From Candidatus Woesearchaeota archaeon (GTDB lineage: Archaea; Nanobdellota; Nanobdellia; Woesearchaeales; ARS49), in NCBI GenBank assembly GCA_016203305.1, contig JACQMY010000027.1, positions 1-60,302 on the forward strand: a stretch of DNA of 60,302 bases, written 5' to 3'. Under the pieces are notes generated by a model. The model was not told the origin of the DNA. It saw only the letters and a list, made by a program, of their open reading frames with translations, and did no database searches. This document shows, piece by piece, positions 32,106 through 55,664 of the stretch. The position numbers were made by a program, and so were the translations under genes. Each line of letters starts with the position of its first letter. Position 1 is the stretch's first letter.

Positions 32106-32248
32106 TCTTCCGCCTTCGTCCTACTGCACGAGTTTGTAGCTTGTAGTCGGTAGTGCGTAGTACTACAAACTACTTACTACAACCTACTCCCTACGTCCTT
32201 CTACCGTCATCCTAATTCCTAAAACCTAATACCTACAACCTATATCCT
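32104..32248 (+). repeat. composite heptad array with inverted arm
   Basis: Contains the 60-nt block 32113-32172, which recurs at 32838-32904. Confidence 0.85.
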
Positions 32249-32828: not shown

Positions 32829-32925
32829 TTCCTACATCCTTCGTCCTACAGCACGAGTTTGTAGCTTGTAGTAAGTAGTCGGTAGTGCGTAGTACTACAA
32901 ACTATCTTCACCCTTCATCCTAATA
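32829..32925 (+). repeat. composite heptad array with inverted arm
   Basis: The 67-nt block 32838-32904 equals the 32113-32172 block plus one extra heptad (aagtagt). Overlaps the stop of 32920..33360. Confidence 0.85.
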
Positions 32926-33360
32926 TCTCGTTATCTTCTCACATTCTTCTCTTTTTGGTGTGAATGCTTCTGCGTTTAGTGTTACTAGGTTTTTGCACCA
33001 TTGTGCGCTGTTTCCTAGCTCGTTGCACATTTCTGGGTTTTGTGTTGCCCATGCTTTGCATAGGCTTTCTGCGCATTGTTCTGGTTTTTTGCTGGCTATG
33101 GCTTGGCAATCTAGGTCGTTTTGTTGGCAGTTTGTTGGTTCATTTGACAGGTATGCTTTGCATCGTGATGCGTGTGGTTGTGTTAGTTCTGCGCAAAGGC
33201 TTGGATTGTTTGTTTTGAGTGCGGTGAGTAGTTTTTGCGTGTCTGTTTGTTTTGTCACGCATGATTTTATGATGCGTTCGTTTTGGTATTTATTCATGCC
33301 TTGATATAGTGCTGCTCCTGCAAGAAGTATGATGAATATGGTGATCGCCGCTTTTTTCAT
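32920..33360 (-). CDS. small secreted Cys-rich protein (unknown)
   Basis: Signal/anchor MKKAAITIFIILLAGAALY and about 10 Cys in a helical-looking repeat pattern. Confidence 0.6.
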   Translation of the reverse strand: MKKAAITIFIILLAGAALYQGMNKYQNERIIKSCVTKQTDTQKLLTALKTNNPSLCAELTQPHASRCKAYLSNEPTNCQQNDLDCQAIASKKPEQCAESLCKAWATQNPEMCNELGNSAQWCKNLVTLNAEAFTPKREECEKITRY

Positions 33361-33431
33361 TAGGCTGTTGTGAAGAGGAAGATATTTAAAGCTTTTTAAG
33401 TTAAGGGGGTCTTGTTAGAGGAAAAAGGGGT

Positions 33432-35096
33432 ATGAGTTGGTTTCGTGGAGTGTTTTCGGTACTGTTTATGGTACTGTGTAGTCTTTTGGTGTCTGCTCAG
33501 TCTGCTACTATTTCTGTTGTTTCTTTGAGGGACCAATCTCAGAGTACGTATCTTTACTTGCATCCCAGCCAGCCTCAGTATTTTTCTTTGGGTTCTGACG
33601 TTGTGGTTACGAAGATTTCAGTTAGGTCTCATTCGTCTTATTATGGTGGTGGTTCGTTGTCTTTGTGTTTGAGTTTTGATAGTGATGCTGCGCAGACTTG
33701 TGTTCCGTTGCAGGGTTCTGATATTAATATTCCGATTGTTCCTAGGAAGGCGAGTACTGCTGTTTTTTCTGTTCGTGGTGACGTGGAGTATGGTGGTTAT
33801 TATTATGTTTACATTAACCAGGTTTCTTGGACTTCTGGTCCTGGTTCCTCTGTGTCGAGAACTTATTCGTCTATTGGCCAGTCTGGTCCTGTTCAGCTTG
33901 GCTCGGCGCGTGATTTTGTTGCTCAGCAGGGTACTGTTACTGTTTCATCTAGTGATTCTAAGGTTGTTGCTTGGTTTCAGGATGCTACTGCTCTGGTTGG
34001 CACGGTAAGTCCTACTTCCAGGACGTCTACAACTCATCCTGATGATAAGGTTCAAGTGTGTTTGAATACTGATGGTAATAAGGATTCGCAGGGCGCTCCT
34101 GTTTGTGACTATGTTGATGCTCAGAATTGTAATTCTCGTAATAGAGATTGGCTTTTGGGTCATTGTTGTGGGGATGCTCCTTATGCTGGTTGTGGTTTTT
34201 ATGGTGATTTGCAGGCTTTGTGTGGGCAGGATGCTTCTGGTCGTTTTAGGTGGGCGCCTCTTTCGAGTGTTGGCGTGATTTTTTCGTTGGATACTTGTCC
34301 GAAGGCTGATGTTGTTTCGAATGGTCAGAAGTTTTTCACTTGTTCTGATGTTCCTGCTGGTATGTCAAATCTTGAGAAGTTTCAGGGCAAGGTCGCGATT
34401 GGTGGCCACGAGTATGCTTGTGAGGGTGCGCGCGTTGCCGAGTGTGGTGGCTCTTCTCCTTTTTCTGCTGGTGCTAAGAAGGTTGGTGCTTCTTTGACTA
34501 TTGGTGGTTTGGTTTACCAGTGTGGTGCTGATGGTACTTGGAAGCAGAGTTTTGATGCTGACAAGGCTTCTTGTGTTGCTGCTGGCTTGAAGTGGACTGG
34601 TTCGAAGTGTTGTGGTGAGCTGGCTGATTCTTTGTCGACTTATGAGGACCAGTATGATCCTGCAAGGGGTGGGGATCCTGGTGGTTGTTTCAAGAGTTCT
34701 TTTGTTGCTTCTGGCAGTTCTGTTGCCGGTAACAAAGATGTTGTTAACTATCGTGGCAAGTTTTATTTGTGCGAGCCTGATCCTTCTAAGCCGTCAACTT
34801 CTGTTCAATTGTTCCAGGGTACTGGTGTTTCTCTTGTGAAGAGTGGTGCTTGTGGTTCTCCGTTGCAGAATGCGTTGCTTTCTGGTAGCTTGCCGCACGT
34901 GGTGTGTGCGCCTGGTGGTTCGTGGCAGTTTGTTTCTCGAACAGAGCTTCATTTTGCTAAATCTATTGCTTGGCAGCCTTTTGGTGTGCTTGAGCGTGAT
35001 GGTTGTTGTCCTGAACAGCAGTGTTGGGATGGTCTGCGTTGTCGCGACAGGAACGAGTATCAGACTGTTGGTTCGAGGGGGTACAAATGTCGATAA
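33432..35096 (+). CDS. secreted Cys-rich protein (unknown), first gene of the 12-kb surface operon
   Basis: Sec-type signal MSWFRGVFSVLFMVLCSLLVSAQS. Cys-rich C-terminal half with CCGD/CCGE motifs. SD aaagggg. Confidence 0.75.
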   Translation: MSWFRGVFSVLFMVLCSLLVSAQSATISVVSLRDQSQSTYLYLHPSQPQYFSLGSDVVVTKISVRSHSSYYGGGSLSLCLSFDSDAAQTCVPLQGSDINIPIVPRKASTAVFSVRGDVEYGGYYYVYINQVSWTSGPGSSVSRTYSSIGQSGPVQLGSARDFVAQQGTVTVSSSDSKVVAWFQDATALVGTVSPTSRTSTTHPDDKVQVCLNTDGNKDSQGAPVCDYVDAQNCNSRNRDWLLGHCCGDAPYAGCGFYGDLQALCGQDASGRFRWAPLSSVGVIFSLDTCPKADVVSNGQKFFTCSDVPAGMSNLEKFQGKVAIGGHEYACEGARVAECGGSSPFSAGAKKVGASLTIGGLVYQCGADGTWKQSFDADKASCVAAGLKWTGSKCCGELADSLSTYEDQYDPARGGDPGGCFKSSFVASGSSVAGNKDVVNYRGKFYLCEPDPSKPSTSVQLFQGTGVSLVKSGACGSPLQNALLSGSLPHVVCAPGGSWQFVSRTELHFAKSIAWQPFGVLERDGCCPEQQCWDGLRCRDRNEYQTVGSRGYKCR

Positions 35097-36220
35097 GAGG
35101 GGTGCTGATAGTTTTGTTGCTTGCTCCTTTGGTTGTTGCTCAGGGCGCTCAGTGGGTTCCTGCTACTATTCGTTCTAATTGGCAGCAGACGAGTACTGGT
35201 TTTTGCAGGGAAGAGAGCCAATGTTTGGTTAGTAATGGTTTTAGTGAGGATTTTGATAATAATCCTGGGAGTTATTGGGATGGTTTGGAGAATCCTTCTA
35301 ATGGGCCTAAGTGTATTAATGATACTCAGTTTATTTTGGATAATTATTGTGACTGGGGTGAGTGGAGTTCTCGTACTCGTTTGGTTGCTACTCAGTTGTT
35401 GGGTGTTGCTTTGTCCTTGAGTCCTGATAATTTTTCTTTGTATTGTGATAAGTATGAGAATGTTTTGAATAGGCATTCTTATTCGAATGATCGTGGTTTT
35501 GTGCGTGACTTTTTCAGAAAGGCTTGTCCGCAGGGGTTTTCGCGTTCTGTTGTTGAGGATTGTGTTAATAGCGTGTGTGTTTTGCGTTATGGTGCTTCTG
35601 TTGCTGTTGGTGCTTCTTTGAATAGGGAGGTTGATGATGGCACTCAGAGCTTTTTGTTTGCTTTGAATGCTAATAGTAATGATTGTCGTTCTGCTATTGA
35701 TTCTGATGTTAAGTTTGATCGTTGTGCTGCTCCTAGTGTTTGGTATAATCATAAGACGAATAGTTTGTTGTACGCTCCTGGCTTGCCTTCTTTGCCTGAT
35801 CCTTCTGCTTTGGCGGGTGATTTTTTTATTCGCCCTTTTTCAGAGAAGCTTTCTCCTTGGGTGTTTTCTTTTGTGCACCGTCCTGCTAAGCAGAGTTTGA
35901 ACTATTCTTTTTTTAGCGCTACTCCTCAATTTACTCATGTTTATCTTGCTAAGAATGATGTTAAGTTTGTTTACGCGTTTAAGCAGTTGAATGTTACTTT
36001 GCGTCAGGTTGATTATGCTGGCTGGTATTTTTCGAATTTTGAGCTTCCTCGTGATGCGTGTGCTCGCATGGTTAAGCGTGTGGATGATACTGCGAGTTGT
36101 GAGTCTCAGCCTTCTCCTACTGAGTTTTATATTGTTGCTCATAAGCTTCCTCCTGTTGGGAGGTTTTTCCAGCCTAGTGTTGTTGATTCTTGGAGTGAGG
36201 TTGTTGGGAGGATTCGATGA
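35087..36220 (+). CDS. secreted Cys-containing protein (unknown)
   Basis: MSIRGVLIVLLLAPLVVAQG signal. The start overlaps the upstream stop by 10 nt. SD gaggggg. Confidence 0.72.
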   Translation: MSIRGVLIVLLLAPLVVAQGAQWVPATIRSNWQQTSTGFCREESQCLVSNGFSEDFDNNPGSYWDGLENPSNGPKCINDTQFILDNYCDWGEWSSRTRLVATQLLGVALSLSPDNFSLYCDKYENVLNRHSYSNDRGFVRDFFRKACPQGFSRSVVEDCVNSVCVLRYGASVAVGASLNREVDDGTQSFLFALNANSNDCRSAIDSDVKFDRCAAPSVWYNHKTNSLLYAPGLPSLPDPSALAGDFFIRPFSEKLSPWVFSFVHRPAKQSLNYSFFSATPQFTHVYLAKNDVKFVYAFKQLNVTLRQVDYAGWYFSNFELPRDACARMVKRVDDTASCESQPSPTEFYIVAHKLPPVGRFFQPSVVDSWSEVVGRIR

Positions 36221-37491
36221 GGGGCCAGGTGACTGTTTTCATTTTGATCGGCATTTTGGTTGTTATAGCGTTCGGCATTACGTTGTACGCTGGCAGTAGT
36301 TTGCAGAAAAAGGAGTTTTCTCAGGGTTCTGAGCAGGCTGGTGTGCAGCAGTTGCAGGATTATGTGCAGACTTGTTTGAATCTTGCTGTTGGTGAGGCTT
36401 TGTCTTTGCTTGGTAAGCAAGGCGGCTTTTTGTATGATAGCCAGGGTGGTCTTTTGCAGCAGGGCAGTGTTGCTTTTGCTAAATTTCCTGGTTCTTCTGG
36501 CGTGTTGGATGTTCCTTACTTGGTGGTGCCGCCTGTTGGTGACCTTGGTGGTGTTTTCGTGAGCAATCCTCCTGGATACCCGTTTGATTCTTTTCCTTTT
36601 AGTCCTGAGGATGGGAGTTTGTTTTTTACTGGTTATTATGGGGTTAGTAAGCTGGCTCCTTTGTATAAGGTGACTGCTTCTGGCGAGCCTGTTGCTGGTT
36701 CTGTTCAGCAGTCGCTTGAAGCCTTTATTGGCAAAAAGACTGCTGTGTGTGCTGATTTCAGGGAGTTTGAGGCTAAGGGTTTTGATGTTGTTTCTGGTTC
36801 TGGTGTGTTGTCTTTGGTGTTTGCTCAGCGTCAGGAGCAGTTTGTTGGTGAGCAGTACGTGACTGTTGAGCTTTTGTGGCCTTTGGAGGTTTCAACTCCT
36901 GGGAAGGAGAAGGTTTTGTTGAAGGATTTTGCTACTAGGGTTAATGTTCGTCTTGCTACTATGTATTATTTTGTTAAGTCTTTGGTTGATGGTGATGTGA
37001 CTGATGTTTCCTTTGCTCCGAGTTCGTCTGGCAACATTAAGGTTGAGCGTCAATCTTTTGGTGAGGATAGTGTGCTTGTTGTTCGTGATGAGCAGAGTTC
37101 TTTGCAGAATCGTCCTTTTGAGTTTGTTGTGTTGCGTAAGAATAGGATTCCTGCGTTGTGGGCTATTGATACTAAGCCGTTGGAGAGGGTTGTGTTTCAC
37201 GTGACTCCTGAGCGTCGTGGTACTAGGGTGGTTGTTGAGGGCAATAAGTTGTTGTTCCGTGATCCTTGTCCTGATGATGGTGTTTCGAATCCTTTTGTGT
37301 TGGAGCTTAATGCTTCTGATCCTGATGAGGATGTGGTGTCTTTTGTTGCTAAGGTTGTTGGTCGTTCTGAGAGCGAGTTGGCTGACGTTGGTACTTTTAA
37401 GGTGCAAGTGTTTGCGAAGGATGATGCGAACTTGCCGCTTGATTCGTTTGATAGCCAGGTGTTTGACGTGAAGGTGGCGTTATGCGAATAG
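36217..37491 (+). CDS. pilin-like protein (class III signal peptide) with large C-terminal domain
   Basis: MRGQ|VTVFILIGILVVIAFGITLY. ATGA overlap. DPDED-containing Ig/cadherin-like segment near the C-terminus. Confidence 0.7.
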   Translation: MRGQVTVFILIGILVVIAFGITLYAGSSLQKKEFSQGSEQAGVQQLQDYVQTCLNLAVGEALSLLGKQGGFLYDSQGGLLQQGSVAFAKFPGSSGVLDVPYLVVPPVGDLGGVFVSNPPGYPFDSFPFSPEDGSLFFTGYYGVSKLAPLYKVTASGEPVAGSVQQSLEAFIGKKTAVCADFREFEAKGFDVVSGSGVLSLVFAQRQEQFVGEQYVTVELLWPLEVSTPGKEKVLLKDFATRVNVRLATMYYFVKSLVDGDVTDVSFAPSSSGNIKVERQSFGEDSVLVVRDEQSSLQNRPFEFVVLRKNRIPALWAIDTKPLERVVFHVTPERRGTRVVVEGNKLLFRDPCPDDGVSNPFVLELNASDPDEDVVSFVAKVVGRSESELADVGTFKVQVFAKDDANLPLDSFDSQVFDVKVALCE

Positions 37492-40400
37492 CAAATCTCA
37501 TTAATTTTGGAAGGAATTTTGTGAGATTTGCTATACTGGCAGAACGCACTATTTTTTCGCCATTAATGCGTTCTGATAGAAGTTCGTTGATACTGATTAC
37601 CTTGGTGTTGGTGTTCGTTCTAGCCATGCCTGTCTTGGCTCAGGAGCGTGGTTGTTGTTGTGATCCTGTTGTGAAGAATGGGAGTATTCAGACACGCGAG
37701 GATTGTGATCGTCAGAAGTTTATTTTTGCTGGCTTCCCGGGCTTTAAGACTTGCAGCGATCATTGTAATGCTACTTTAGGCAAGATTGCTGTTGGTTTTT
37801 GTGGGGATGGTATTTGTCAGGCGAATGAGAATGCTTTGTCGTGTTCTGCTGATTGTGCTCCTTTGCAGGCTGGTTGTGGCAGTCCTACGTTCCGTCCTGC
37901 TCCTCGGGATTTGACGGTTGTTCCTGTGCGTGGTGAGAAGGCTTTTGCGTTGTCTTTTTCCATTCCTTGTCCTGTTGACTTTTTGTCTATTTCGCGTTGT
38001 AAGGGTTTGGGGTGTGGGGACTTTTCAAAGATTGCTGATATTGCTCCTGCAACTTCATTTAATGACGAGGATGAGTCTTTGTTGTTCGCTACTGATTATA
38101 CTTATTCTGTTGTTGCTCATTATCGTCAGGTTGGCGATAGCGAGCCTGGTGTTGCTTCTGGTAATTTGGGTGATTTGGAGTGTTGGAAGCAATTGGAGTC
38201 TTCTTTTTGTATTTCTCCGTTTTTTTATGAGCGTTTCCGGTCTTATCTTTTGTCGAATGGTTATGCGCAGTATGATGCTGCTGACTTTGCTTCTCAGTTT
38301 GATCGTTTTGTTGAGCTCGCTTTTGGTGGTCGTTTTAATCGTGCTTGGCGTTGTAATGGTAATGTTCTTGTTGGTCCTCAGGTTTCTTGTGAGGGTGATC
38401 AGGTTTGTCGTGCTGATGAGCGTGGTGCTAACTGTATGTCTCGTGAGGATTGTGGTGGTGGGGATCCTTTCGGCTTGTATTCTGCTGTTTCTGGGTGCGA
38501 GGGTGTGTTGCCTCGTTATTGCTTTTTTGACAAGAGTGCCACTGTTCAGGATAAGTGTTATGATTGTGATCCTAGGATGTCGTGTTATGATTACAAGTCT
38601 TCTGGTGCTTGTCAGCGGGATAATTGTGGTGTTGGCGAGTGTGAGTGGCGTTCTACTTTTAGTGATGTTGGTGCTGGTGTTTGTATTGATAAGAAGAAGA
38701 GTAATTGTGCGTTTTGTGATAAAAGGGGGACTGATGGTGTTGGTAACATTGATGCGTTTAGTGCGTTGTGGGATTCTTGTCGTGAGGAGAAGAGTTCTGC
38801 TCTTAGCACGAACTTATTCCCTTGCTTTTTTGATAAGGAGTTGAGGATTAGTAAGAGTTGTGATGAGGCTTCTTGTTCTGATTATACTCGTTTGCAGTGT
38901 GGTTCTCCTGGGGCTATTACTTTGAATCCTGATAACTCGCTTGCTACTTTTAGTACTGATCCTTGTGGTATTCGTGTGTGCCAGTTTGATGCTGTTTCTG
39001 GCTGTGCAAAAAAGGCTGATGGTCGTTCTTCTTTTAGGGATTGTAAATTTGGCAACAAGTCGTGCGAGCGTGATTATTTTGCTCCTGTTACTACTTTGAT
39101 TCCTTTTGGTGTTGGTGGCAGGATTGATGGTTTGAACGTTCGTATTTTTGATAAGGTTTCAAAGCTTGTTGCTCCCAGGGATTTTGCTGGCCAGACTGGT
39201 TATAAGACGTTTTTGTGCGTTAAGAGTGCTTCTAATGATTGTCGTGATGCTGCTGCTTTCCCTATTTTGACTACTGCTACTCAGCTTTTGTTGAAGAATC
39301 GGTTTTTGAAGGATGTTAAGGATGGTAAGGCTCGGACTCTTGCGCAATTGGAGGTTGGCAATAATACTATTGCGTTTTATAGTCGTGATCCTGCCAGTAA
39401 CTTGGAGGTTGTTAAGGAGTCTGTTGTTGTTGCCTGTGATGCGTGTCAGGGTCCTACTTTGGTGAATGCTTCTGTTAGTGGTGGCCGCTTTTTGGGTGGA
39501 GAGTTTTTCACTTCTGCTACTATTCCGACTTTTACTTTGGAGTTTGATGAGCCTACTTTGATTACTTATGCCGAGTTGCGTTCTGAGCTTGGTAATGTTC
39601 CTCTTGCTCAGGTTTCGCAGGGTGTTGTTACTTCTCATCAGTTTGTTGCTTCTCAGGCGTTAAGAGGGAATTATTCTTTTGGCGTGAATGGTAAGAACGT
39701 GCAGGGTGTTTTTGTTAACAATACTGGCTTGTCTTATCTTGTGGTTGTTGATCCTTCGTTGGCTGACGTGCGTATTTCTCCTCCTGATGGGAGTATTTTG
39801 AACAAGACGTCTATTGATATTGTTTTGGAATTTTCTCGTCCGGTTACTTTGTCTAGGATTCAGATTGTTTTGGAGAGTTTTTCTGATCCGTTTGTTAAGC
39901 GTCAGATTTCAAGGGATATTACTGACTTGTTTAAGGTCGATAATAATAACAGGACTTTTACTGCTTCTGTTACTAATTTGACTGGTGGTGGTATGCATAC
40001 GATTGTTGTTGACGCTCTTGGTTTCAATGGTTTGCCGATTTTTAAGCAGAGTAGCGTGTTTATTGCTACTTTAAAGCCTAATTTGCGTCTTTCTCAGCCT
40101 GCGTTTGGTGTTACGCCGTATGTTTCGTTTGATGCTGTTGTGGAGAGTCCTTTGCCTAGCGTGTGTGCTTATGTGTTTAACACTCCTACTGCTCCTAGTT
40201 CTCAGGATTTTGATTTTTTCAAAAAGTTTTCTGGGGAGATGTACTTGCATAGTGCTTCTGGTTTGCAGATTGGTGATCCTGCTCAAGAGGTATTCTTGTT
40301 GCATGCGTATTGTCGTTTGAACTTGTTCGGTTTGGTCAATCGTACTTTTCCTATTTCGTTTGATCCTGAGCCTCCTTTTATTGTGAAGTCTTGGGCAGAG

Positions 40401-42632
40401 CCTGGTGTTATTTCTGAGAGGTTCTTTCCTGATCAGGAATTGTTTGTGGCTGCTTTGAAGGTTCAGTTGGACAAGCCTGGGTTTTGTAAGTTTTCGCGTT
40501 CTGTGAGCACGTTTGAGGCTATGGAGGGGGTTTTCCCTGGGTTTGATCTTGCTCCTAAGGTTACTTTGTCTGCTGAGGTGAATGTTTCTTCGCAGAGTTC
40601 CTTTACTTATTATGTTGCGTGTAAGGGTAAAAACCAATTAGTTTCTGAGCCTGTTCAGATCAAGTTTGGTGTTGACTTGTCCCGGCCGCTTTCTGTTTCT
40701 AGCAGCACTCCTTTTGGGTCTAGGACTACTAACTTTACTGTTGGCGTTTTTGCTAATAAGCGGGTGTTTTGTTATGTTGGTGAGCGGGAGAATGATGCTA
40801 CGAAATGTATGGGTGCGTGCAGGAGTGCGTATTCTCAGGCGCAGGAGCAGGAAGTTTCTGGTGAGGGGAATTATACTTATTTCGTGCAGTGTGCTCATGC
40901 TTCTGGTGAGAAGTCTGATGTGTTGCGTATTCCTGTTTTGGTTGATACTTCTGTTCCTGAGATGGAGTACGTGACTGATGATAGTGCTTTGGAGGATGTG
41001 GAGGTTTCTTGGAGTTTGCGTAAGTTGCGTGTTGCGTTCAAGGGCAATGATGCTGAGAGTGGCATTGATCATTATCTTGTTTCTTTGCGTAATTTGCAGT
41101 CTAAGCGGCTTGTGTTCAAGGATATGGTGGTGAACGTTACTCATGGTCAGCCGTTTTACGTGTCAACTAATGAGAACGGCACTCCTTTGAGGTTGGCTAA
41201 TGGTGATCATTACCAATTCATAGTTAAGGCTGTAAACAGGGTTGGTCAGGAAAGTGCTGCTTTGGAGAGTGATGGTGTTGCTATTGATTCTTCGCAGCAG
41301 CCTGATGATTGTGCGAATGGTGACTTGGATGGTGAGGAGTCTGATGTTGATTGTGGTGGTGCGTGTAATCCGTGCGAGTCTGGCTTGCGTTGTGCTTTGG
41401 ATAGGGATTGTGTGACTAATTATTGTAATGCTCGTGTTTGTGAGCTTGCGAAGTGTACTGATGGTGCTATGAATGGTTTGGAGTCTGATGTTGATTGTGG
41501 TGGTAAGTTTTGTCCGAAGTGTGGTGAGGAGAAATCGTGTATTGTGGAGAGTGATTGTGATACTGATTATTGTGATCCTGTGAGGAAGTTGTGTGCTGTT
41601 GCTCCTCCTTGTGCTGACAAGGCCGCTTCTCCCGGTGAGACTGATGTTGATTGTGGTGGTCCTTGTACTCCTTGTGTTGAGGGTAAGGGTTGTCTGGAGC
41701 ATACTGATTGCGCCTCTGGTTTGAGTTGTGATCCTGAGACTAAGGCTTGTTCGACTAAGAAGGTTGGCGATGATGATGCGGATGGTGTTTTGGACGATAA
41801 GGATAAGTGTCCAGGCACGCCTGTTGAGGAGTCTGCTGATGAGTCTGGTTGTGGTTTGAGTCAACTGTTTAGTGTTGGTGATGATATTAATGATAAGTGG
41901 CGTATGGACTTTTTCGGCTGTATTGATTGTCCTGAGGCTGCTGCTGATGGTGACTTTGATGGTGATGGCTTGGTGAACTTGCGCGAGTTTGAGCTTTCTT
42001 CTAATCCGAAGTTGAGGGATAGTGATGGTGATGGCTGGCGTGATGGTCTTGAGGTGGAAAAAGGGACTAATGTTTTGGATCCTTCAAGTCATCCGCCTAG
42101 TGCTTTCAAGGCTTTGTTGTGGTTGTTGCTTGGTGTTTTGGTGTTTGGTAGTGTTGCGTATGGTGGTTTCTTGTTGTCTAAGATGAGGCGTGAGGTTGAG
42201 CGTGTTGAGGAGCGTGTTGAGAGGCGTGAGGAAGCTCGGCGTGTGGAGACTTTGCGTGTTGATGAGCTTGAGCATTTGCGTTCTTTTGCTCATAAGGTTG
42301 AGCTTCCTGAGAAGGACTGGGTTTCTTTGGAGCGCGAGATTAAGAAAAAGCCTTTGCCTAAGAAGCGCTTTAGGGAGGAGTTGGAGCGTTTGCGTCGTAT
42401 TGCTCGTCGTGAGACTGTCGGAACTCCTTTGGAGCGTTTGCGTTCTGTTCTTGGTGACTTGTCTGAGCGTGAGCGTAGGGAGTTGGAGCGTAAGTTGGAG
42501 ATGTTTAAGCGTGGCGAGCTTCCGAGGGAGGAGGCTGATGTGTTGTTTAAGAAGTTGCAGGTTACGGCTGAGTATTATAAGACGCATCGTGAGGAGTTTG
42601 AGCGGGAGTTGAGGCGTTATGGCAAACGATAG
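37482..42632 (+). CDS. giant (1716 aa) membrane-anchored surface protein with Cys-rich modules and Ca-binding-type repeats
   Basis: Signal peptide (LILITLVLVFVLAMPVLAQE; alternative start at ATG 37566). CGDGICQANENALSCSADC module. Three tandem E(S/T)DVDCGG.C..C modules. DxDxDG thrombospondin-type-3-like repeats. TM helix LLWLLLGVLVFGSVAYGGFLL. Arg/Glu coiled-coil cytoplasmic tail. Confidence 0.85.
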   Translation: MRIANLINFGRNFVRFAILAERTIFSPLMRSDRSSLILITLVLVFVLAMPVLAQERGCCCDPVVKNGSIQTREDCDRQKFIFAGFPGFKTCSDHCNATLGKIAVGFCGDGICQANENALSCSADCAPLQAGCGSPTFRPAPRDLTVVPVRGEKAFALSFSIPCPVDFLSISRCKGLGCGDFSKIADIAPATSFNDEDESLLFATDYTYSVVAHYRQVGDSEPGVASGNLGDLECWKQLESSFCISPFFYERFRSYLLSNGYAQYDAADFASQFDRFVELAFGGRFNRAWRCNGNVLVGPQVSCEGDQVCRADERGANCMSREDCGGGDPFGLYSAVSGCEGVLPRYCFFDKSATVQDKCYDCDPRMSCYDYKSSGACQRDNCGVGECEWRSTFSDVGAGVCIDKKKSNCAFCDKRGTDGVGNIDAFSALWDSCREEKSSALSTNLFPCFFDKELRISKSCDEASCSDYTRLQCGSPGAITLNPDNSLATFSTDPCGIRVCQFDAVSGCAKKADGRSSFRDCKFGNKSCERDYFAPVTTLIPFGVGGRIDGLNVRIFDKVSKLVAPRDFAGQTGYKTFLCVKSASNDCRDAAAFPILTTATQLLLKNRFLKDVKDGKARTLAQLEVGNNTIAFYSRDPASNLEVVKESVVVACDACQGPTLVNASVSGGRFLGGEFFTSATIPTFTLEFDEPTLITYAELRSELGNVPLAQVSQGVVTSHQFVASQALRGNYSFGVNGKNVQGVFVNNTGLSYLVVVDPSLADVRISPPDGSILNKTSIDIVLEFSRPVTLSRIQIVLESFSDPFVKRQISRDITDLFKVDNNNRTFTASVTNLTGGGMHTIVVDALGFNGLPIFKQSSVFIATLKPNLRLSQPAFGVTPYVSFDAVVESPLPSVCAYVFNTPTAPSSQDFDFFKKFSGEMYLHSASGLQIGDPAQEVFLLHAYCRLNLFGLVNRTFPISFDPEPPFIVKSWAEPGVISERFFPDQELFVAALKVQLDKPGFCKFSRSVSTFEAMEGVFPGFDLAPKVTLSAEVNVSSQSSFTYYVACKGKNQLVSEPVQIKFGVDLSRPLSVSSSTPFGSRTTNFTVGVFANKRVFCYVGERENDATKCMGACRSAYSQAQEQEVSGEGNYTYFVQCAHASGEKSDVLRIPVLVDTSVPEMEYVTDDSALEDVEVSWSLRKLRVAFKGNDAESGIDHYLVSLRNLQSKRLVFKDMVVNVTHGQPFYVSTNENGTPLRLANGDHYQFIVKAVNRVGQESAALESDGVAIDSSQQPDDCANGDLDGEESDVDCGGACNPCESGLRCALDRDCVTNYCNARVCELAKCTDGAMNGLESDVDCGGKFCPKCGEEKSCIVESDCDTDYCDPVRKLCAVAPPCADKAASPGETDVDCGGPCTPCVEGKGCLEHTDCASGLSCDPETKACSTKKVGDDDADGVLDDKDKCPGTPVEESADESGCGLSQLFSVGDDINDKWRMDFFGCIDCPEAAADGDFDGDGLVNLREFELSSNPKLRDSDGDGWRDGLEVEKGTNVLDPSSHPPSAFKALLWLLLGVLVFGSVAYGGFLLSKMRREVERVEERVERREEARRVETLRVDELEHLRSFAHKVELPEKDWVSLEREIKKKPLPKKRFREELERLRRIARRETVGTPLERLRSVLGDLSERERRELERKLEMFKRGELPREEADVLFKKLQVTAEYYKTHREEFERELRRYGKR

Positions 42633-43128
42633 GGCTCAGATGATTCAGCAGGTGTTTGTGTTTATTCTTGCAGGTCTTGTTTTTATTTTGATCATTAGTT
42701 ATGGCTATAAGGCTATTAGTTATTTTATGGAGCGTCAGGAGCAGGTTGTTTTGGTTGATTTTCGTACGGATTTGGAGATTGCTGTTGAGGGTGTGAAGCG
42801 TGATTTTCAGAGTGTGCGTAAGGTTCAGTTGAAGCTTCCGAGTGAGTATGATGGTGTTTGTTTTTTTGATTACTCGACTTGTGATGGTGTTGTCAGGCCT
42901 GTTCTTGAGCTTCCTGGCAGGTCTGTTGAGGTTTCCTGGGCTGCTGAGGCGTGCAAGGGCGGCAGTCAGAATGTGTTTATTGTTCCGCGTGTTTCTGAGT
43001 CGATAGACTTGCCTGATGTGGAGGTTGTCGGTGGTTTTGTTTGTGTTCCAAATGTTAATGGTGTGACTGTTCGTATGGAGGGCACTGGCAGAAAAGCGAA
43101 GGTTTCTGCGTGGGAGCAAGATGAATAG
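42619..43128 (+). CDS. pilin-like protein (class III signal peptide)
   Basis: MANDRAQ|MIQQVFVFILAGLVFILIISYG. Overlaps the 3' end of the giant gene by 14 nt. Confidence 0.65.
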   Translation: MANDRAQMIQQVFVFILAGLVFILIISYGYKAISYFMERQEQVVLVDFRTDLEIAVEGVKRDFQSVRKVQLKLPSEYDGVCFFDYSTCDGVVRPVLELPGRSVEVSWAAEACKGGSQNVFIVPRVSESIDLPDVEVVGGFVCVPNVNGVTVRMEGTGRKAKVSAWEQDE

Positions 43129-44188
43129 TAGGGGTTTTGAGGAGCAGTTTCATTGGATCTTTGTCATGATAGCTGGTGGCGTGATTTTGGGTTTTTTCTT
43201 TATGGTTGCGCAAAAGCAGCGTTCTTTGAGTCAGGAGCACTTGCAAGTTACCCTCGCTACTGATGTTGAGGATATTTTTGTTGGCGCTCTTGTTAGCAAG
43301 GGTGCTGCTCAGCTTTTGCCTTTGCCTTCTGATGGTATTGGTTTTGAATGTAATAGGGGGTGTGCGTGTTTTTTTAGTATTTCTAGGGCGCGTAAGGATT
43401 TTGGTGAGAAGTCCATGTTTGCTCCGTCTATTTTGGAGGGCGAGGATGCGTTGTTGTGGACTGTTGATTGGAAGCAGCCGTATCGGGTTTCGAATTTTAT
43501 TTTTGCTACTAATCCTGATTATAGGTATGTTTTCGTGTTTGATGATAGTGATGGTGAGAGTAGGAGGTTGTTGGAGGTTGTTACTAAGAGTTTGCCTCCG
43601 CCTTTGAGAAGGCAGGGTGTTGTTGTTGCTTCTGTTGTGTATGTGAATGTTTCTCTTGATGATCTTTCTTCTCTGGATGCTGAGGAGTTCGTGCATAACA
43701 GGTTTGTTTTTTTGAACATTCCTCTTGAGCGTGTGCGTTCTGTTCAGTTGGCTCGTTCTTTGCGCAGGGTTTCTTCTGGTGTTAGTGTTGATAAGACTGC
43801 TATTGGTTTTTACTCTTATGATGGGAGCTTTAACCAGGTTGACTATGTTGCGTATAGTGGGTTGCCTAGTGTGTTTGCCGCCATTTTTTCTGCTGATAAT
43901 GTTATGTTCAAGTGTAGTATGGAGACTGCGTTTGAGCGGTTGGCTGTTGTTTCTGCTGTTTACGAGCGTCGTTCTGCTACGTTGGATGAGGCGCTTGCCG
44001 AGTCTAAACCTTGGTGTTCTTATGGTTCTATTGGTCAGGCGTTGGGTGAGCAGCGGAAAGTGGCTGAGAGTGTTGCTGCTGATTTGAAGAAGGCGAAGGA
44101 TCAGATTGCTTCTTTGTCTAGGATTTCTAGTGGTTTGGAGAAGTTGAATGGGGAGCTTGTTCAGGCTAGTTGTCCGGAGTTGTTCTGA
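43121..44188 (+). CDS. pilin-like protein (class III signal peptide)
   Basis: MNSRG|FEEQFHWIFVMIAGGVILGFFFMV. 8-nt overlap with the upstream gene. Confidence 0.68.
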   Translation: MNSRGFEEQFHWIFVMIAGGVILGFFFMVAQKQRSLSQEHLQVTLATDVEDIFVGALVSKGAAQLLPLPSDGIGFECNRGCACFFSISRARKDFGEKSMFAPSILEGEDALLWTVDWKQPYRVSNFIFATNPDYRYVFVFDDSDGESRRLLEVVTKSLPPPLRRQGVVVASVVYVNVSLDDLSSLDAEEFVHNRFVFLNIPLERVRSVQLARSLRRVSSGVSVDKTAIGFYSYDGSFNQVDYVAYSGLPSVFAAIFSADNVMFKCSMETAFERLAVVSAVYERRSATLDEALAESKPWCSYGSIGQALGEQRKVAESVAADLKKAKDQIASLSRISSGLEKLNGELVQASCPELF

Positions 44189-44766
44189 TGGCGCGGCTTC
44201 TTCGTCCTACTTCCTACAACCTAACGCCTTCGTCCTTCGTCCTTCATCCTACGCCCTACTACCTTCGTCCTACAAACTACAAACTACGAACTGCAAAGGG
44301 CCAGGTTAAGATGTTCGAGACCGTGGGAGTGTTGGTCGTGTTTTTCTTTTTGCTTATTTCCGGTTCTGTGTTTTATTTTGGTGCGCAGAAGTCTTCTTTG
44401 CAGAAGGAGAAGGTTAAGGCTTCTGAGCAGCAGGCGTTGCAGGTTGTTTTGAAGGCTTTGTACTTGCCTGAGCTTGATTGTTCTTTTTTGAAGGCTCAGC
44501 GTGAGAATTGTATTGATAAGTTGAAATTGCGGCATGTTGCTGCTTTGATGCGTAATGAGTCTGTGTTTTCTAATTATTATCCTGAGTTTGGCTACGCGAC
44601 TATTCGCGTGCAGGAGTTGTATCCTGCTGGCGAGTCTGTTGATGTTTATGTTCGTAAGGCTGAGGAGTATTCTTCTATTTTGGTTACTCAGAGTCCGATT
44701 TTGTTGTACGATCCTGTGAGGGAGACTTATGGTTTTGGTGTTATTGAGGTGGCTGCTTATGTCTAG
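44188..44766 (+). CDS. pilin-like protein whose predicted leader is encoded by a heptad array
   Basis: TGATG coupling at 44186-44190. The leader MARLLRPTSYNLTPSSFVLHPTPYYLRPTNYKLRTAKGQ precedes VKMFETVGVLVVFFFLLISG. The only alternative start, ATG 44311, would remove the KGQ motif. Confidence 0.55.
   Translation: MARLLRPTSYNLTPSSFVLHPTPYYLRPTNYKLRTAKGQVKMFETVGVLVVFFFLLISGSVFYFGAQKSSLQKEKVKASEQQALQVVLKALYLPELDCSFLKAQRENCIDKLKLRHVAALMRNESVFSNYYPEFGYATIRVQELYPAGESVDVYVRKAEEYSSILVTQSPILLYDPVRETYGFGVIEVAAYV
44197..44292 (+). repeat. heptad array (inside the 5' end of ORF 44188..44766)
   Basis: cttcttcgtcctacttcctacaacctaacgccttcgtccttcgtccttcatcctacgccctactaccttcgtcctacaaactacaaactac. Confidence 0.85.
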
Positions 44767-45310
44767 TCGACAAACTACGGACTACGCACTACAAACTACT
44801 AACTACAAACCACAAACTAGGGGCCAGATGGAGATTTTCGGTCTGGTCGTTATTGTTATTCTTGTCGCTCTTGGTTTGTTGTTCGCTGTTGTAGTGTTGA
44901 CTAAAAAGCCTGCTCAGCAGTCTCAGAGGGTTAAGGAGAGCATTCAGGCTGCTAATTTTTTGAATACTTTGTTGGGCACTACTGTTGAGAATTGTAACAG
45001 GCGTACGATGAGGGAGTTAGTGCAGGATTGTGCTTTGGCGTCTGTTGGCAGTGGTGAGTGGCTTGGTGATTCTTTGTGCGAAGATGGTGTTTCGACTTGT
45101 AAAAAGCTTAATTCAACTACTGCTTTGTTGTTGGACGCTACTTTGGGTGAGTGGGGTAAGAGGTATAATTTTTTCATGGCCGGTTCTGATGCTATTGAGC
45201 TTGTTCAGATTAGGAATGGTGATTGTAAGGGTGAGCGTGAGGGCAGCACTCGTCCTGAGATTGTGCGTCCTGGTTTTTCTATTAATGTTACGTTGCACAT
45301 TTGCAGATGA
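44759..45310 (+). CDS. pilin-like protein with heptad-array-encoded leader
   Basis: MSSRQTTDYALQTTNYKPQTRGQ|MEIFGLVVIVILVALGLLFAVVVL. ATG 44759 overlaps the upstream stop. The alternative start ATG 44828 lacks the RGQ motif. Confidence 0.55.
   Translation: MSSRQTTDYALQTTNYKPQTRGQMEIFGLVVIVILVALGLLFAVVVLTKKPAQQSQRVKESIQAANFLNTLLGTTVENCNRRTMRELVQDCALASVGSGEWLGDSLCEDGVSTCKKLNSTTALLLDATLGEWGKRYNFFMAGSDAIELVQIRNGDCKGEREGSTRPEIVRPGFSINVTLHICR
44770..44819 (+). repeat. heptad array (ACTACNN class)
   Basis: acaaactacggactacgcactacaaactactaactacaaaccacaaacta. Confidence 0.8.
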
Positions 45311-45326: not shown

Positions 45327-45425
45327 CAGGTGTAAGGGTGAAGAACGCACTATTCTTCCTTCACCCTTCGTCCTAACACCTACGTCCTTCCGCCTTCATC
45401 CTACAACCCTACACACTACAAACTA
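45327..45425 (+). repeat. heptad array with inverted arm (hairpin after the operon end)
   Basis: aagggtgaag ... cttcaccctt forms a 10-bp stem, followed by cgtcctaacacctacgtccttccgccttcatcctacaaccctacacactacaaacta. Confidence 0.85.
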
Positions 45426-48084: not shown

Positions 48085-48200
48085 TCTACACACTACTTAC
48101 TACAAACTATCTTCGTCCTTCTTCCTTCGCCCTTCCGCCTTCGTCCTTCATCCTAACGCCTAATACCCAATGCCTAATCCCTTCCACCTTATACCTTTCT
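48085..48200 (+). repeat. heptad array
   Basis: ctacacactacttactacaaactatcttcgtccttcttccttcgcccttccgccttcgtccttcatcctaacgcctaatacccaatgcctaatcccttccacc. Confidence 0.85.
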
Positions 48201-48262
48201 TATACTTCTTAAGAATCGAATTGATACGTGTTGTTTGCTTGTTTTTGTTTGAGGTGATCGTT

Positions 48263-49983: not shown

Positions 49984-50250
49984 GATTCTACAAACCACAC
50001 ACTACAAACTACCAACTACAAACTATCTTCATCCTTCCGCCTTCATCCTAATACCTAACGCCTAATACCTAATTGAGGTTGAAGGTATAAGGTGGAAGGA
50101 TGAAGACCGTTGTTCTTCCGCCTTCTTCCTTCACCCTTCGTCCTAATACCTAACGCCTAATACCTAATTGAGGTTGAAGGTATAAGGTGGAAGGATGAAG
50201 ACCGTTGTTCTTCCGCCTTCTTCCTTCCACCTTCATCCTACCCAATGCCT
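49984..50250 (+). repeat. long heptad array containing two hairpin modules and an 87-nt perfect direct duplication
   Basis: 50046-50132 is identical to 50141-50227. Each copy holds the inverted arm aggttga|aggtata|aggtgga|aggatga. Confidence 0.9.
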
Positions 50251-50303: not shown

Positions 50304-50618
50304 ATGAAAGGACAAGGGCTTCCGATTACGACAATCATTATTGCTGCTTTAGGTATTATTGTGTTGGTGGTTGTTGGCGCGATTTTTTCAGGTCAGATTG
50401 GTAAGTTTGGTCGTGCTGCTTCCGAGTGTACGGGCAGGTGTGTTGTGAAGAGTCCTTCCATTGCTATGCAGAATTCTGGTGCTACTTTCGAGCAGGATAC
50501 TGCTTGTAATCCTGAGTTTGAAACTAGGTTGACTGGCACGTATATTGCAAAGGGCACTCCTAAGGATCAGAAGATTCAGGACTTTATGTGCACTGCGTGT
50601 TGTGTTGCTACAGGATAG
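50304..50618 (+). CDS. pilin-like protein 1 (class III signal peptide)
   Basis: MKGQG|LPITTIIIAALGIIVLVVVGAIF. Cys-containing C-terminal domain ending CTACC. Confidence 0.78.
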   Translation: MKGQGLPITTIIIAALGIIVLVVVGAIFSGQIGKFGRAASECTGRCVVKSPSIAMQNSGATFEQDTACNPEFETRLTGTYIAKGTPKDQKIQDFMCTACCVATG

Positions 50619-50619
50619 T

Positions 50620-50862
50620 ATGAAAGCGCAGGGCTTGCCGGTTACTATGATTATCATTGTAGCGATAGGCCTTATCGTGTTGGTCATCATGGGCTATATT
50701 GTGTCTCAGAAGACCACTCAGTTCGGCAAGGGCACGAAAGAGGTTGCTGGCCAGGAGTGTAAAGTTCCTGTTGGCACGCCTATGCTTATCGAGGATTGCC
50801 AGGATCCTGTGTATGGTGCTTTCTCGAACGTTCGTGCTGATCAGGTGTGTTGTAAGCGATAA
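50620..50862 (+). CDS. pilin-like protein 2 (paralog of 50304..50618)
   Basis: MKAQG|LPVTMIIIVAIGLIVLVIMGYIV. C-terminus ...QVCCKR. Confidence 0.78.
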   Translation: MKAQGLPVTMIIIVAIGLIVLVIMGYIVSQKTTQFGKGTKEVAGQECKVPVGTPMLIEDCQDPVYGAFSNVRADQVCCKR

Positions 50863-50893
50863 GATTTTATAATCTGTTTTTTCTATTCTCTTT

Positions 50894-51004
50894 ATGAACA
50901 AAAGAGGAGATGTTTCTATGTTTGAGCAGGTGGCTATGGGTATTATTGTTGCTGTCATTATTGGCTTGGCGATTTACATCTTCATGAAGAAGGTGTTGGC
51001 GTGA
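50894..51004 (+). CDS. 36-aa mini pilin-like peptide
   Basis: Hand-translated as MNKRGD|VSMFEQVAMGIIVAVIIGLAIYIFMKKVLA*. Below the ORF-track cut-off. GTGA overlap with the next gene. Confidence 0.5.
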   Translation: MNKRGDVSMFEQVAMGIIVAVIIGLAIYIFMKKVLA

Positions 51005-52080: not shown

Positions 52081-52217
52081 ACAAAAAGGGTCAGGAGATT
52101 CCTGGTTGGATGTTTATTATTGGCATTATTCTTGGCTTGCTTGGCTTGGGCGTGTTGATTTATATCGCGATGAAGTCTGGTCGTCTGGGTTCAGAGGCTA
52201 TTGGTGGTTTGGGATGA
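52059..52217 (+). CDS. 52-aa pilin-like peptide
   Basis: Hand-translated as MYKSDRVNKKGQ|EIPGWMFIIGIILGLLGLGVLIYIAMKSGRLGSEAIGGLG*. The alternative GTG start at 52077 forms a GTGA overlap with the upstream stop. Confidence 0.5.
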   Translation: MYKSDRVNKKGQEIPGWMFIIGIILGLLGLGVLIYIAMKSGRLGSEAIGGLG

Positions 52218-52780
52218 ATAGTAAGGGTATTAGCATGATTTTTGTCGTGCTGATTTTGGGTATTGTGGTAATTGCTGTCAGCATTCCTGTTTTCATGTTG
52301 GGCAAGAAGACTGCTGATAAGGGTGTGTTGAAGACGTTGAGTGATGTTCTTTTTGGCGAGCAAACAGACGCGGCGTCTGCGAGGGGGAGGCTTCCTACTC
52401 CTGATCCAGTGGTTTTGCCTCCGGACAAGCGTGCCGCGATTGATATGTTGTTGGCGTACATTATTGATTGTCATGTGAAGTATAGGGATTTTAAGCAGTG
52501 GAATTGTGCAGAGATTTTCACGCACGAGATGGGTGGTGTGCGTATTTCTAAGGCTGAATTGTTGAGCGATGCTAATATCGCTTATTTGAAGTCTCAAGGG
52601 GTTAGTGATGTTGAGTGGGGCAGTGGGGAGGGCATGATTACTTTTTTGGGCAGGACACGGGATCCTGTGCCTCTTGCAGTGCTTTGTTATTATAGTGGTG
52701 CAGCTGAGCTTGGTGGGGACATAGCCCATTTTGATAAAGTTCGTCTTATGACTGGGTTTGTGCTTGGTCCGTGCAGCTAA
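52214..52780 (+). CDS. pilin-like protein 6
   Basis: MNSKG|ISMIFVVLILGIVVIAVSIPVF. ATGA overlap with the upstream peptide. Confidence 0.7.
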   Translation: MNSKGISMIFVVLILGIVVIAVSIPVFMLGKKTADKGVLKTLSDVLFGEQTDAASARGRLPTPDPVVLPPDKRAAIDMLLAYIIDCHVKYRDFKQWNCAEIFTHEMGGVRISKAELLSDANIAYLKSQGVSDVEWGSGEGMITFLGRTRDPVPLAVLCYYSGAAELGGDIAHFDKVRLMTGFVLGPCS

Positions 52781-52804
52781 AGGTTTAAATATGCGTGATT
52801 GTTG

Positions 52805-53140: not shown

Positions 53141-53149
53141 TTTTCTCAG

Positions 53150-53281: not shown

Positions 53282-53284
53282 ATC

Positions 53285-53292
53285 TTTATAAA
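53285..53292 (+). promoter_or_regulatory. TATA box (tttataaa)
   Basis: Its centre is about 27 nt upstream of ATG 53316, which fits a leaderless transcript. It immediately follows the heptad array. Confidence 0.55.
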
Positions 53293-55662: not shown

Positions 55663-55664
55663 TT

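Follow-up and report, generated by a model that had tools for sequence, protein, structure and literature searches.

DPANN archaea are ubiquitous, mostly uncultured and thought to live attached to other cells, and the proteins that make this contact are, to our knowledge, essentially unknown. In this study we examine an operon of eight genes (g1 to g8) from Candidatus Woesearchaeota archaeon (assembly GCA_016203305.1), contained in a stretch of 60,302 nt of contig JACQMY010000027.1 read on the forward strand, referred to hereafter as the window, and compare it with the described surface systems to which it comes closest. Our analyses favour, at a confidence just short of even, a lineage-wide, stand-alone, type-IV-filament-like surface adhesion or contact complex of Woesearchaeota; a search of the literature found no description of this operon in Woesearchaeota or DPANN. 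Many archaeal type IV filament loci include large immunoglobulin (Ig)-rich adhesin-like proteins, and filaments of 'system 1' and '4A' are present in some DPANN (bioRxiv 10.64898/2026.04.22.720090).

The minor-pilin/PilY1 operon fimU-pilVWXY1Y2E of Pseudomonas aeruginosa shares with g1-g8 a position that stands alone from ATPase, platform and major-pilin genes, and a composition of about five unequal pilin-like subunits, alike in the N-terminal helix only, together with one very large Ca-binding adhesin-type protein. The operon studied here differs from it in its archaeal host, in its two extra Cys-rich secreted partners and in the lack of any sequence or fold match; moreover, whereas PilY1 is soluble or pilus-associated, g4 is a type I membrane protein with a cytoplasmic tail, and neither g4 nor any other operon product matched the PilY1 beta-propeller (PF05567) in Pfam searches. 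The Epd pili of Methanococcus maripaludis ('system 1', reported in some DPANN) share with the operon a [KR]G/Q-type cleavage motif (the slash marking the cut) and the presence of adhesin-like proteins in the locus, and comprise several minor pilins, all of them required; the Epd locus, however, holds an ATPase, platform proteins and a peptidase, none of which occurs in the operon, where the DUF361 and Class_IIIsignal models are likewise unmatched. Q at +1 is typical of EppA-type euryarchaeal pilins, and EppA-processed pilins with Q at this position were reportedly described by Szabo et al. in 2007.

The Sulfolobus bindosome (Bas) contains, like g3, large extracellular proteins with a pilin-type N-terminus and, like the operon, small pilin-like helpers in a surface-retained assembly that is not a long filament; the operon differs in having no sugar-binding proteins, ABC transporter or BasE/F genes, and the N-terminal NCBIfam match of g7 to BasB falls far below threshold (E 0.009; 16 bits against a cut-off of 230). 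The GspG-K and ComGC-GG pseudopili of the type II secretion (T2SS) and Gram-positive Com systems likewise comprise five pilin-like proteins, of which one is far larger than the rest (in the operon g6 or g3, to be compared with GspK), and form a short pseudopilus instead of a long pilus, as would be expected here. In contrast to them, the operon has no secretin, ATPase or platform gene, the N-terminal similarity of g8 to GspG/GspH is sub-threshold (E 0.17), and there is no conserved Glu at +5, Glu being found at +2/+3 in g6, +3 in g8 and +6 in g7. ArlF and ArlG, which combine an archaellin/pilin-like N-terminal hydrophobic helix with a beta-rich ectodomain, serve as a static envelope anchor; the pilin-like operon proteins would share this combination with the archaellum stator, but no homology was detected and no archaellum genes lie nearby. 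By analogy, the operon appears to resemble fimU-pilVWXY1Y2E, Epd, the bindosome and the T2SS/Com pseudopili in logic, while every sequence test of membership in them came out negative and fold searches retrieved no pilin. Those four systems lack a giant that is anchored and reaches into the cytoplasm with a tail, a pair of disulfide-rich secreted proteins, and core-genome synteny.

The eight genes are co-directional and overlapping, and fill positions 33432-45310 (~12 kb):

33382-33431, plus strand: putative promoter and leader of archaeal type, from inspection of the sequence
33432-35096, plus strand: g1, 554 residues, from the open reading frame (ORF) list
35087-36220, plus strand: g2, 377 residues, from an ATG within ORF 35021-36220
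36217-37491, plus strand: g3, 424 residues, from the ORF list
37482-42632, plus strand: g4, 1716 residues, from the ORF list
42619-43128, plus strand: g5, 169 residues, from the ORF list
43121-44188, plus strand: g6, 355 residues, from the ORF list
44188-44766, plus strand: g7, 192 residues, from an ATG within ORF 44170-44766
44759-45310, plus strand: g8, 183 residues, from an ATG within ORF 44729-45310

A first-pass annotation, made from the letters of the window alone, had placed eight plus-strand genes at these starts, with which the ORF list agrees throughout, and had noted that nearly all junctions overlap; the overlaps are as it gave them, and relatives show the same overlapping layout. 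Each of the eight starts is preceded by a purine-rich Shine-Dalgarno (SD)-like motif, which takes the form GGGG(T) immediately 5' of the g1 ATG and is a strong GAGGTGG ahead of the g8 ATG at 44759. The putative operon promoter carries an AT-rich TATA-like box (ATATTTAAA, 33382-33390) with a purine-rich stretch 5' of the box. A hydrophobicity scan found one N-terminal hydrophobic segment in each product and a second one in g4 alone. All eight products have full-length homologues, and the ORFs are therefore not chance; an exact-sequence look-up returned no record identical to the g3 protein. Pfam and NCBIfam searches on the eight proteins gave no significant family, in keeping with the earlier statement that no function could be assigned.

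Conservation of the unit was surveyed by tblastn in 88 related loci (~1.5 Mb, cited below by handles beginning with L). The complete g1-g8 set was recovered in the same order in at least 24 distinct genomes, and partial sets lie at contig ends in about ten further, distinct species-level genomes, with identity to the window dropping to ~25-35% in the farthest operon-bearing ones. The eight genes are therefore co-conserved among relatives, so that one outcome named in the first-pass annotation as refuting its reading, a lack of co-conservation, did not occur. Gene sizes in relatives (~549, 382, 436, 1702, 172, 347, 167-173 and 164 residues for g1 to g8) and flanks are stable, RNase P p30 always lying upstream and a convergent PhoU/AbrB-like gene downstream. 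Median identity to the window across the 24 complete-operon genomes is highest for g5 (60%), followed by g7 (54%), g8 (53%), g4 (50%), g2 (43%), g3 (40%), g6 (39%) and g1 (35%), the least conserved gene and the only variable, fast-evolving one; reference genes give 53% (PheRS-beta), 53% (pseudouridine synthase) and 46% (RNase P p30). Conservation of g4, g5, g7 and g8 is at the level of PheRS-beta and, as far as sequence identity can tell, most of the operon evolves at the rate of housekeeping genes. Homologues of g3, g4 and g7 come almost solely from metagenome-assembled genomes (MAGs) labelled Candidatus Woesearchaeota, Nanoarchaeia or Nanoarchaeota, and a g7-family profile retrieved 1194 cluster representatives at E <= 1e-3 (932 at E <= 1e-10) from 1.84 billion proteins, from which the system must be widespread. 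Many MAGs with the operon and its synteny (L010, L012, L013, L016, L018-L021, L025, L027 and others) are titled 'uncultured Methanosarcinales archaeon', a label that looks like a taxonomic misassignment.

Five of the operon products are pilin-like at the N-terminus. In g3, g5, g6, g7 and g8 a short basic leader (typically 3-12 residues) ending in [KR][GAS] is followed by Q and some 20 hydrophobic residues, g6 being exceptional in having F, I, L or V in place of Q at +1. All five thus show the combination that defines a class III leader (basic leader, [KR][GA], about 20 hydrophobic residues), and the pattern is kept in each family in nearly all of the 24 complete-operon genomes, which bears out the proposal that products 3 and 5-8 have class III-type N-termini. 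The predicted mature N-terminus is the best conserved segment of these proteins, with the near-invariant sequences QITxFIIIG (g3), QIIGQVFIFILAG (g5), FELQFHWIFILIAG (g6), QIKMFETxxVLVVFFFLL (g7) and QMEIFGLVIIVILLAIG (g8). Comparison of the families by hhalign detected similarity in the N-terminal helix only (g3-g7, 61%; g7-g8, 30%) and no homology among the five ectodomains.

Predicted cleavage of g3 is at MRG/QVTVFILIG, the family N-terminus being M[KR][GA]Q[IV]TxFIIIG. AlphaFold2 models of g3 and g7 were built on homologue alignments. That of g3 (predicted local distance difference test, pLDDT, 85.8) consists of a 66-residue helix (2-67), a novel alpha/beta domain and two Ig/cadherin-like beta-sandwiches; Foldseek against the PDB gave weak cadherin matches only (best E 1.5e-3) and retrieved no solved pilin. 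The predicted mature start of g7 is the Q encoded at 44302-44304, after KG, giving QVKMFETVGVLVVFFF; its relatives have leaders of 3-6 residues (e.g. MRG/QIKMFET). The g7 model (pLDDT 86.5), with a 54-residue helix (2-55), a helical alpha-beta loop and a four-stranded antiparallel sheet, has the predicted layout of a classical pilin, and Foldseek against the PDB gave nothing below E 0.05 (best E 0.058) and no pilin. For g5, cleavage is predicted at DRA/QMIQQVFVFILAG within a motif, [KR][GA]/Q[IM][IL]GQ[IV]F, conserved in the 24 genomes (alignment A6), and for g6, which has six Cys in its ectodomain, at MNSRG/FEEQFHWIFVMIAGG within the conserved [KR][KR]G/[FILV]E[LM]QFHWIF (alignment A3); neither protein has a PDB or Pfam match. 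The mature g8 protein is predicted to start at the Q encoded at 44822-44824, after RG, giving QMEIFGLVVIVILVALG, and contains conserved Cys; leaders in its relatives measure 4-6 residues (e.g. MSKG/QMEIFGL), and N-terminal, sub-threshold matches to DUF7288/7289 came from 4 of 25 members of the family.

The giant protein g4 is organised as follows, in residues of the window protein encoded on the plus strand:

29-54: Sec signal
~55-530: GCCCD motif and Cys-rich head
~530-1270: Ig/fn3-like stalk
~1277-1420: three DVDCGGxCxxC repeats
~1430-1520: TSP3-type Asp-rich repeats
1541-1559: transmembrane helix
C-terminal to the helix: charged tail of 157 residues, with 45 K/R and 36 D/E

Its tandem Ig-like domains and Asp-rich, Ca-binding-type repeats, in an anchored protein of more than 1000 residues, are those expected of a giant adhesin. 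The g4 profile matches Ig/fn3 domains of titin (E 2e-8) and BIg domains of SiiE (E 6e-4); the window protein gave sub-threshold or weak Pfam matches to TSP3_bac and fn3, and many orthologues carry precomputed domains, which are confined to TSP3_bac, Big_13, Big_3_3 and the like. Its 87 homologues are mainly 1550-1700 residues long and about 60 Cys are invariant, mostly within the ~470-residue head (alignment A2), including the CCC motif at residue 58, part of a GCCC that directly follows the predicted cleavage site. The anchoring proposed at first, type I with a highly charged tail, agrees with the single C-terminal transmembrane helix, and this topology is kept in orthologues, a K/R/E-rich tail of 90-230 residues being present in all but one examined; the coiled-coil label given to the tail was judged from composition. 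In 36 orthologues the N-terminus is a Sec signal of ~22-35 residues ending in AQxxGCCC, relative to which the window protein is longer by 28 residues at this end, the product of an inserted hairpin segment, so that g4 starts either at 37482, with a long n-region, or at ATG 37566. No surface-layer (S-layer) domain was found in g4 or the other products by Pfam or profile searches.

The two remaining products are secreted and rich in Cys, as the first-pass annotation had recognised, with Sec-type signals ending in LVSAQS (g1) and VVAQG (g2) and with 27 and 12 Cys respectively; of the CCGD, CCGE and CCCD motifs it had assigned to them, the first two (and also CCPE) are in g1, and CCCD belongs to g4. 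The head of g1 (~25-220) is variable, and the conserved, Cys/Trp-rich C-terminal half, to which the invariant Cys and Trp are confined (alignment A7), carries CCGD, CCGE and GCCPExQCWDG. The g1 orthologues of one subclade (L028-L034) contain a Laminin_G_3 (ConA-like lectin) domain at ~115-250 (E 1e-19 to 1e-23); the window protein has no Pfam or PDB match. The simplest reading of g1 would be a docking module joined to an exchangeable recognition head. In g2 the Cys are mostly invariant (C40, C46, C88, C120, C164, C325 and C338 in alignment A8 of 34 orthologues) and include no CC motif. The protein is conserved over its entire length, keeps its place beside g3 and g4 in the clusters that have diverged furthest, and gave no Pfam match in any family member and no PDB match. 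Common ancestry of the Cys-rich parts (g1, g2 and the g4 head) was considered and rejected, hhalign finding no homology among them.

On these grounds, a mechanism can be proposed in which a class III signal peptidase encoded elsewhere would cut the short basic leaders of g3 and g5-g8 after [KR][GAS]. The hydrophobic N-terminal helices of the five proteins could next assemble as a short hetero-oligomer, be it a pseudopilus, a stalk or a bundle embedded in the membrane, for which minor-pilin tip complexes, the Sulfolobus bindosome and the ArlF/G stator offer comparable cases. Such a bundle would hold or present the Ig-rich, Ca-binding giant g4, on whose Cys-rich head g2 and the conserved Cys/Trp-rich half of g1 may dock; the exchangeable g1 head, a lectin in some lineages, would supply recognition of a ligand or host surface, and the cytoplasmic tail of g4 would couple the complex to the cell interior. 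Sequence comparisons and structure models suggest this through the co-inheritance of the eight genes, the class III signatures, the predicted folds of g3 and g7, the fast evolution of g1, the recurrent partnership of g3-like proteins with giants and the in-frame inserts in the g7 and g8 leaders, both described below, and the adhesion-type modules, namely Ig/cadherin-like in g3, fn3/BIg-like and TSP3 in g4 and the ConA-like lectin head in some g1 orthologues.

Several observations weigh against this adhesion or contact complex. No Pfam or NCBIfam pilin, pseudopilin, archaellin, class III or Bas model was matched above threshold by the window proteins, nor were Pfam pilin models matched at E <= 0.1 by the window proteins or by sets of 58, 25 and 31 members of the families; the PDB, searched with profiles, gave nothing for g1, g2, g3, g5, g6, g7 and g8, Foldseek retrieved no solved pilin for the g3 and g7 models, and the g8 helix is broken by KKP soon after the membrane segment. 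The machinery is also missing from the vicinity, a Pfam scan of the window ORFs finding no type IV pilus ATPase, platform protein or prepilin peptidase (peptidase A24), and no ORF of at least 200 residues with the FlaI/VirB11-type Walker A pattern GxxG[SAT]GK[TS][TS] being found within 10 kb in the 88 related loci or, with the same pattern, in the window. Finally, adhesins are not typically conserved at the housekeeping level seen in g4, g5, g7 and g8, and a structural envelope machine would suit this conservation just as well. Linkage to an ATPase is not obligatory for pilin genes of archaea, which are commonly encoded at a distance from ATPase loci, and nanoarchaeal cognate pilins had not been identified (PMC4858521). 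The initial interpretation as an adhesion or filament-tip system is accordingly retained in part: a co-conserved unit with class III N-termini and adhesion modules stands, whereas a filament or filament tip may or may not be formed, no pilus machinery lying nearby and no pilin model or solved pilin structure being matched.

The conservation just mentioned is the starting point of a different explanation, in which g4 would be the main envelope or S-layer-like stalk of wall-less ultra-small archaea, g1 and g2 its canopy, and the pilin-like proteins static anchors, as ArlF/ArlG are for the S-layer, so that the operon would be structural housekeeping and not adhesion. Genes conserved like those of PheRS-beta and pseudouridine synthase, a giant of tightly kept length with about 60 invariant Cys, fixed synteny with core translation genes, a very large g7 family that is apparently single-copy per locus and the absence of a pilus ATPase near the 88 related loci all agree with it, as does the S-layer-like character of some adhesin-like proteins of type IV filament loci (bioRxiv 10.64898/2026.04.22.720090). 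However, genes for S-layer proteins tend to be monocistronic and to evolve fast, the searches turned up no S-layer domain, a g1 head that varies and swaps in a lectin points to ligand recognition, and the several paralogous g3-like and giant clusters per genome argue against a single lattice; we therefore hold an envelope scaffold to be unlikely, though worth serious consideration. The similarity to prepilins might, on the other hand, be deceptive, since an uncleaved type II signal anchor also looks like a short basic N-terminus followed by a transmembrane helix. The products would in that case be ordinary secreted and type II-anchored membrane proteins, co-transcribed and convergently class III-like, which need not form one complex. 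This would account for the failure to match a known pilin family or fold and to find processing or assembly genes nearby, and a Met just after the motif (MFET, MEIFG) could serve as start, being the called start in ~18 of the top 150 g7 representatives. What makes it rather improbable is that four families unrelated to one another keep a near-invariant [GAS]-Q in the same place throughout 24 genomes, which a generic anchor does not require, that no part of these proteins is better conserved than the helix, and that strict co-inheritance and overlapping genes imply a fixed stoichiometry.

One could also envisage a pseudopilus of the competence type, or else an apparatus for host contact or for a cytoplasmic bridge, by which a metabolically dependent archaeon would acquire host DNA, nucleotides, lipids or other material, the g4 tail acting on the cytoplasmic side. 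The count of five distinct pilin-like subunits is that of the Com/T2SS pseudopilus, membership of the core genome would agree with an acquisition function that DPANN cannot do without, and the g4 tail is long, conserved and very basic; nevertheless, the operon and its flanks contain no ComEC-like channel, nuclease, DNA-binding domain or ATPase, and a transport function is without direct evidence, for which reasons such an uptake machine seems quite improbable to us. Returning to the surface adhesion or contact complex, its most ambitious form would make it a core host-contact organelle of Woesearchaeota and related DPANN, in which a pseudopilus-anchored giant complex recognises the host through the g1 head, mediates intimate contact or a cytoplasmic bridge, and signals inward through the basic g4 tail. 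We regard this extension as improbable; if true, it would describe the bridge through which reduced cells obtain lipids, nucleotides and other essentials. The operon supplies eight lineage-wide candidate families, none in Pfam and some conserved at housekeeping level, five of them with prepilin-type signals and one, g1, with a recognition head swapped between clades, and these are direct targets for metaproteomics, labelling in cryo-electron tomography, multimer modelling and heterologous processing assays.

Relatives of the N-terminal ~260 residues of g3 occur in at least 196 tblastn-confirmed stretches among species-representative genomes, and are almost always directly followed by a giant ORF of 1000-3100 residues. 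This pairing is found in at least three cluster types, several of which may coexist in a genome, as in GCA_018302815, where the orthologous operon (L011) is accompanied by a second locus (L051) with a 693-residue g3-like gene followed by a 2497-residue gene. Recurrence of a g3-like gene before a giant gene supports a functional partnership of g3-type proteins with giant surface proteins, and suggests as a broader rule in Woesearchaeota genomes that a pilin-like gene of the g3 type precedes a giant one. Paralogous clusters of at least two further types were noted among L045-L088 (L051, 9992-19563; L069, 9965-19642; L071, 9992-20366), some with two g3-like genes flanking a secreted protein of ~1000 residues, and no Pfam family was matched by the proteins scanned from other cluster types. 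The possibility that type-2 clusters carry a pilus ATPase, platform protein or peptidase was rejected, Pfam finding nothing in L069 and L071 and the Walker A scan being negative.

Three junctions of the window operon carry genome-specific, in-frame insertions directly after coupled start codons, those of g4, g7 and g8. These and the downstream boundary comprise the following elements:

37489-37533, plus strand: RNA hairpin at the g3/g4 junction, enclosing the g3 stop and starting 5 nt past the g4 ATG (37482-37484)
44195-44297, plus strand: heptad array in the g7 leader, of CCTTCGT/CCTACAA/ACTACAA units, in frame between the g7 ATG and KGQ
44768-44820, plus strand: heptad array in the g8 leader, of ACAAACT units, in frame between the g8 ATG and RGQ
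45334-45425, plus strand: downstream operon boundary, a perfect 10-bp hairpin (45334-45343/45359-45368) followed by a heptad array

The first hairpin is part of an 84-nt in-frame insertion absent in relatives, where the g3/g4 overlap is 16 nt; folding of 37478-37570 gave a dG of -28.1 kcal/mol (z = -4.4, none of 200 shuffles as good). In g7, the 36 codons ahead of KGQ are a heptad array, which has no inverted copy, and in g8 the 20 codons ahead of RGQ include such an array. The element at 45334-45425 sits between g8 and the convergent PhoU/AbrB-like gene; heptad-array hairpins had been described at first as flanking the operon on both sides, which is so downstream, while the upstream one (~32830-32925) is parted from g1 by a minus-strand gene (32920-33360), and arrays also lie inside the operon, in the g7 and g8 leaders. 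An exact 12-mer, GAACGCACTATT, was observed both in the g3/g4 insertion (37542-37553) and in the hairpin loop downstream of g8 (45343-45354), two exact copies in 60 kb against ~0.007 expected.

Relatives have a different in-frame element at the matching positions, a GC hairpin, in g7 (L016, L020) or g8 (L018, L025). In L016 it reads approximately GGGGGAC-N9-GTCCCCC-TTTGGAACCCCCG, with stems and loops slightly different in L018, L020 and L025. The insertion sites, at 37482-37566, 44188-44297 and 44759-44820 of the window, 11425-11495 of L016, 13741-13815 of L018 and 18021-18085 of L020, are thus occupied by different elements in different genomes at identical junctions, and fall in coding parts of cleavable leaders (the Sec n-region of g4 and the class III leaders of g7 and g8). 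Where genes overlap throughout an operon, insertions may be tolerated only in the stretches that encode leaders; alternatively, the elements may have a part in regulating translational coupling. The upstream ATGs of g7 and g8 in the window have the better SD motifs and the cleavage-type motif lies 3' of the insertions, which makes translation through the inserts, followed by their removal with the leader, plausible; that all g7 and g8 leader inserts are in frame, together with the SD motifs at the upstream ATGs, suggests that the KGQ/RGQ site must be translated. Met codons just past the motifs (44311 in g7, 44828 in g8) are possible alternative starts. Elsewhere in the window heptad arrays clearly occupy non-coding 5' regions, for instance before FEN1. 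Mechanical ORFs of FEN1, an AsnC-like regulator and a YdjM-like membrane protein run upstream through arrays (13006-13090, 48170-48260 and 58872-58990), the Pfam match of FEN1 implying a start near 13087, because arrays contain few stop codons; a frame that stays open across an array thus does not on its own show that it is translated.

Nearly every intergenic spacer of the window contains G-poor arrays of 7-nt units (CCTTCGT, CCTACAA, CCTAATA, ACTACAA), almost always in one orientation. Examples are at 3635-3702, 13023-13084, 17373-17397, 22104-22217, 25185-25261, 26321-26463, 32162-32242 and 32830-32925, and at 44195-44297, 44768-44820, 45353-45425, 48086-48161, 49988-50240, 53151-53278, 56464-56537 and 59467-59633. 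The sequence CTACRAACTAC (up to one mismatch) occurs 45 times in the window against 2.3 expected. A strict period-7 detector found six arrays in the window and none in the ~1.5 Mb of the 88 related loci, from which the arrays appear to be a genome-specific repeat system. At 50027-50240 a 95-bp unit, containing a heptad array followed by its inverted copy (AGGTTGA/AGGTATA/AGGTGGA), is repeated in 2.3 copies at 94% identity and, to judge from its letters, could form long hairpins.

Neighbours of the operon in the window are archaeal housekeeping genes, including Pelota, PheRS alpha and beta, an RsuA-type pseudouridine synthase and RNase P p30, as well as RFC, FEN1 and a proteasome-activating ATPase; the 60-kb window, when scanned for tRNAs and Rfam families, yielded neither. 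Two other loci of the window also encode candidate surface proteins. On the minus strand, 19040-25127 contains three paralogous lipoprotein-like genes of ~310 residues (26-28% mutual identity) with lipobox-like motifs LxGC, LLAC and LAAC, together with genes for a multi-pass membrane protein of 532 residues and for a protein of 386 residues whose N-terminus is pilin-like, MMNKRGKSPIQSGSPAVALIGIITLLF; three proteins scanned had no Pfam match. On the plus strand, 50304-56453 encodes about seven proteins with class III-like N-termini (among them MKGQG, MNSKG, MKRGQ, MSRGQ, MNKRG and NSRKG), of which one of 104 residues could, from its sequence, be a major pilin; here too, three proteins scanned had no Pfam match. 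Proteins of both loci were not found by tblastn in the fetched related loci, and a genome scan with the protein encoded at 53849-54667 returned no relatives. Strand asymmetry of the window is extreme (GC skew +0.21 and AT skew -0.28, reaching +0.31 and -0.37 in the operon), plus-strand genes encoding V/G/F/S/R-rich proteins and minus-strand genes K/N/T/Q/I-rich ones. In several relatives (L007, L009, L012, L013, L015, L019 and L024-L026) the skew of the orthologous operon is reversed (GC -0.13 to -0.19, AT +0.31 to +0.43), which indicates that mutation is very strongly biased by strand and in this way alters the amino-acid make-up of orthologous proteins.

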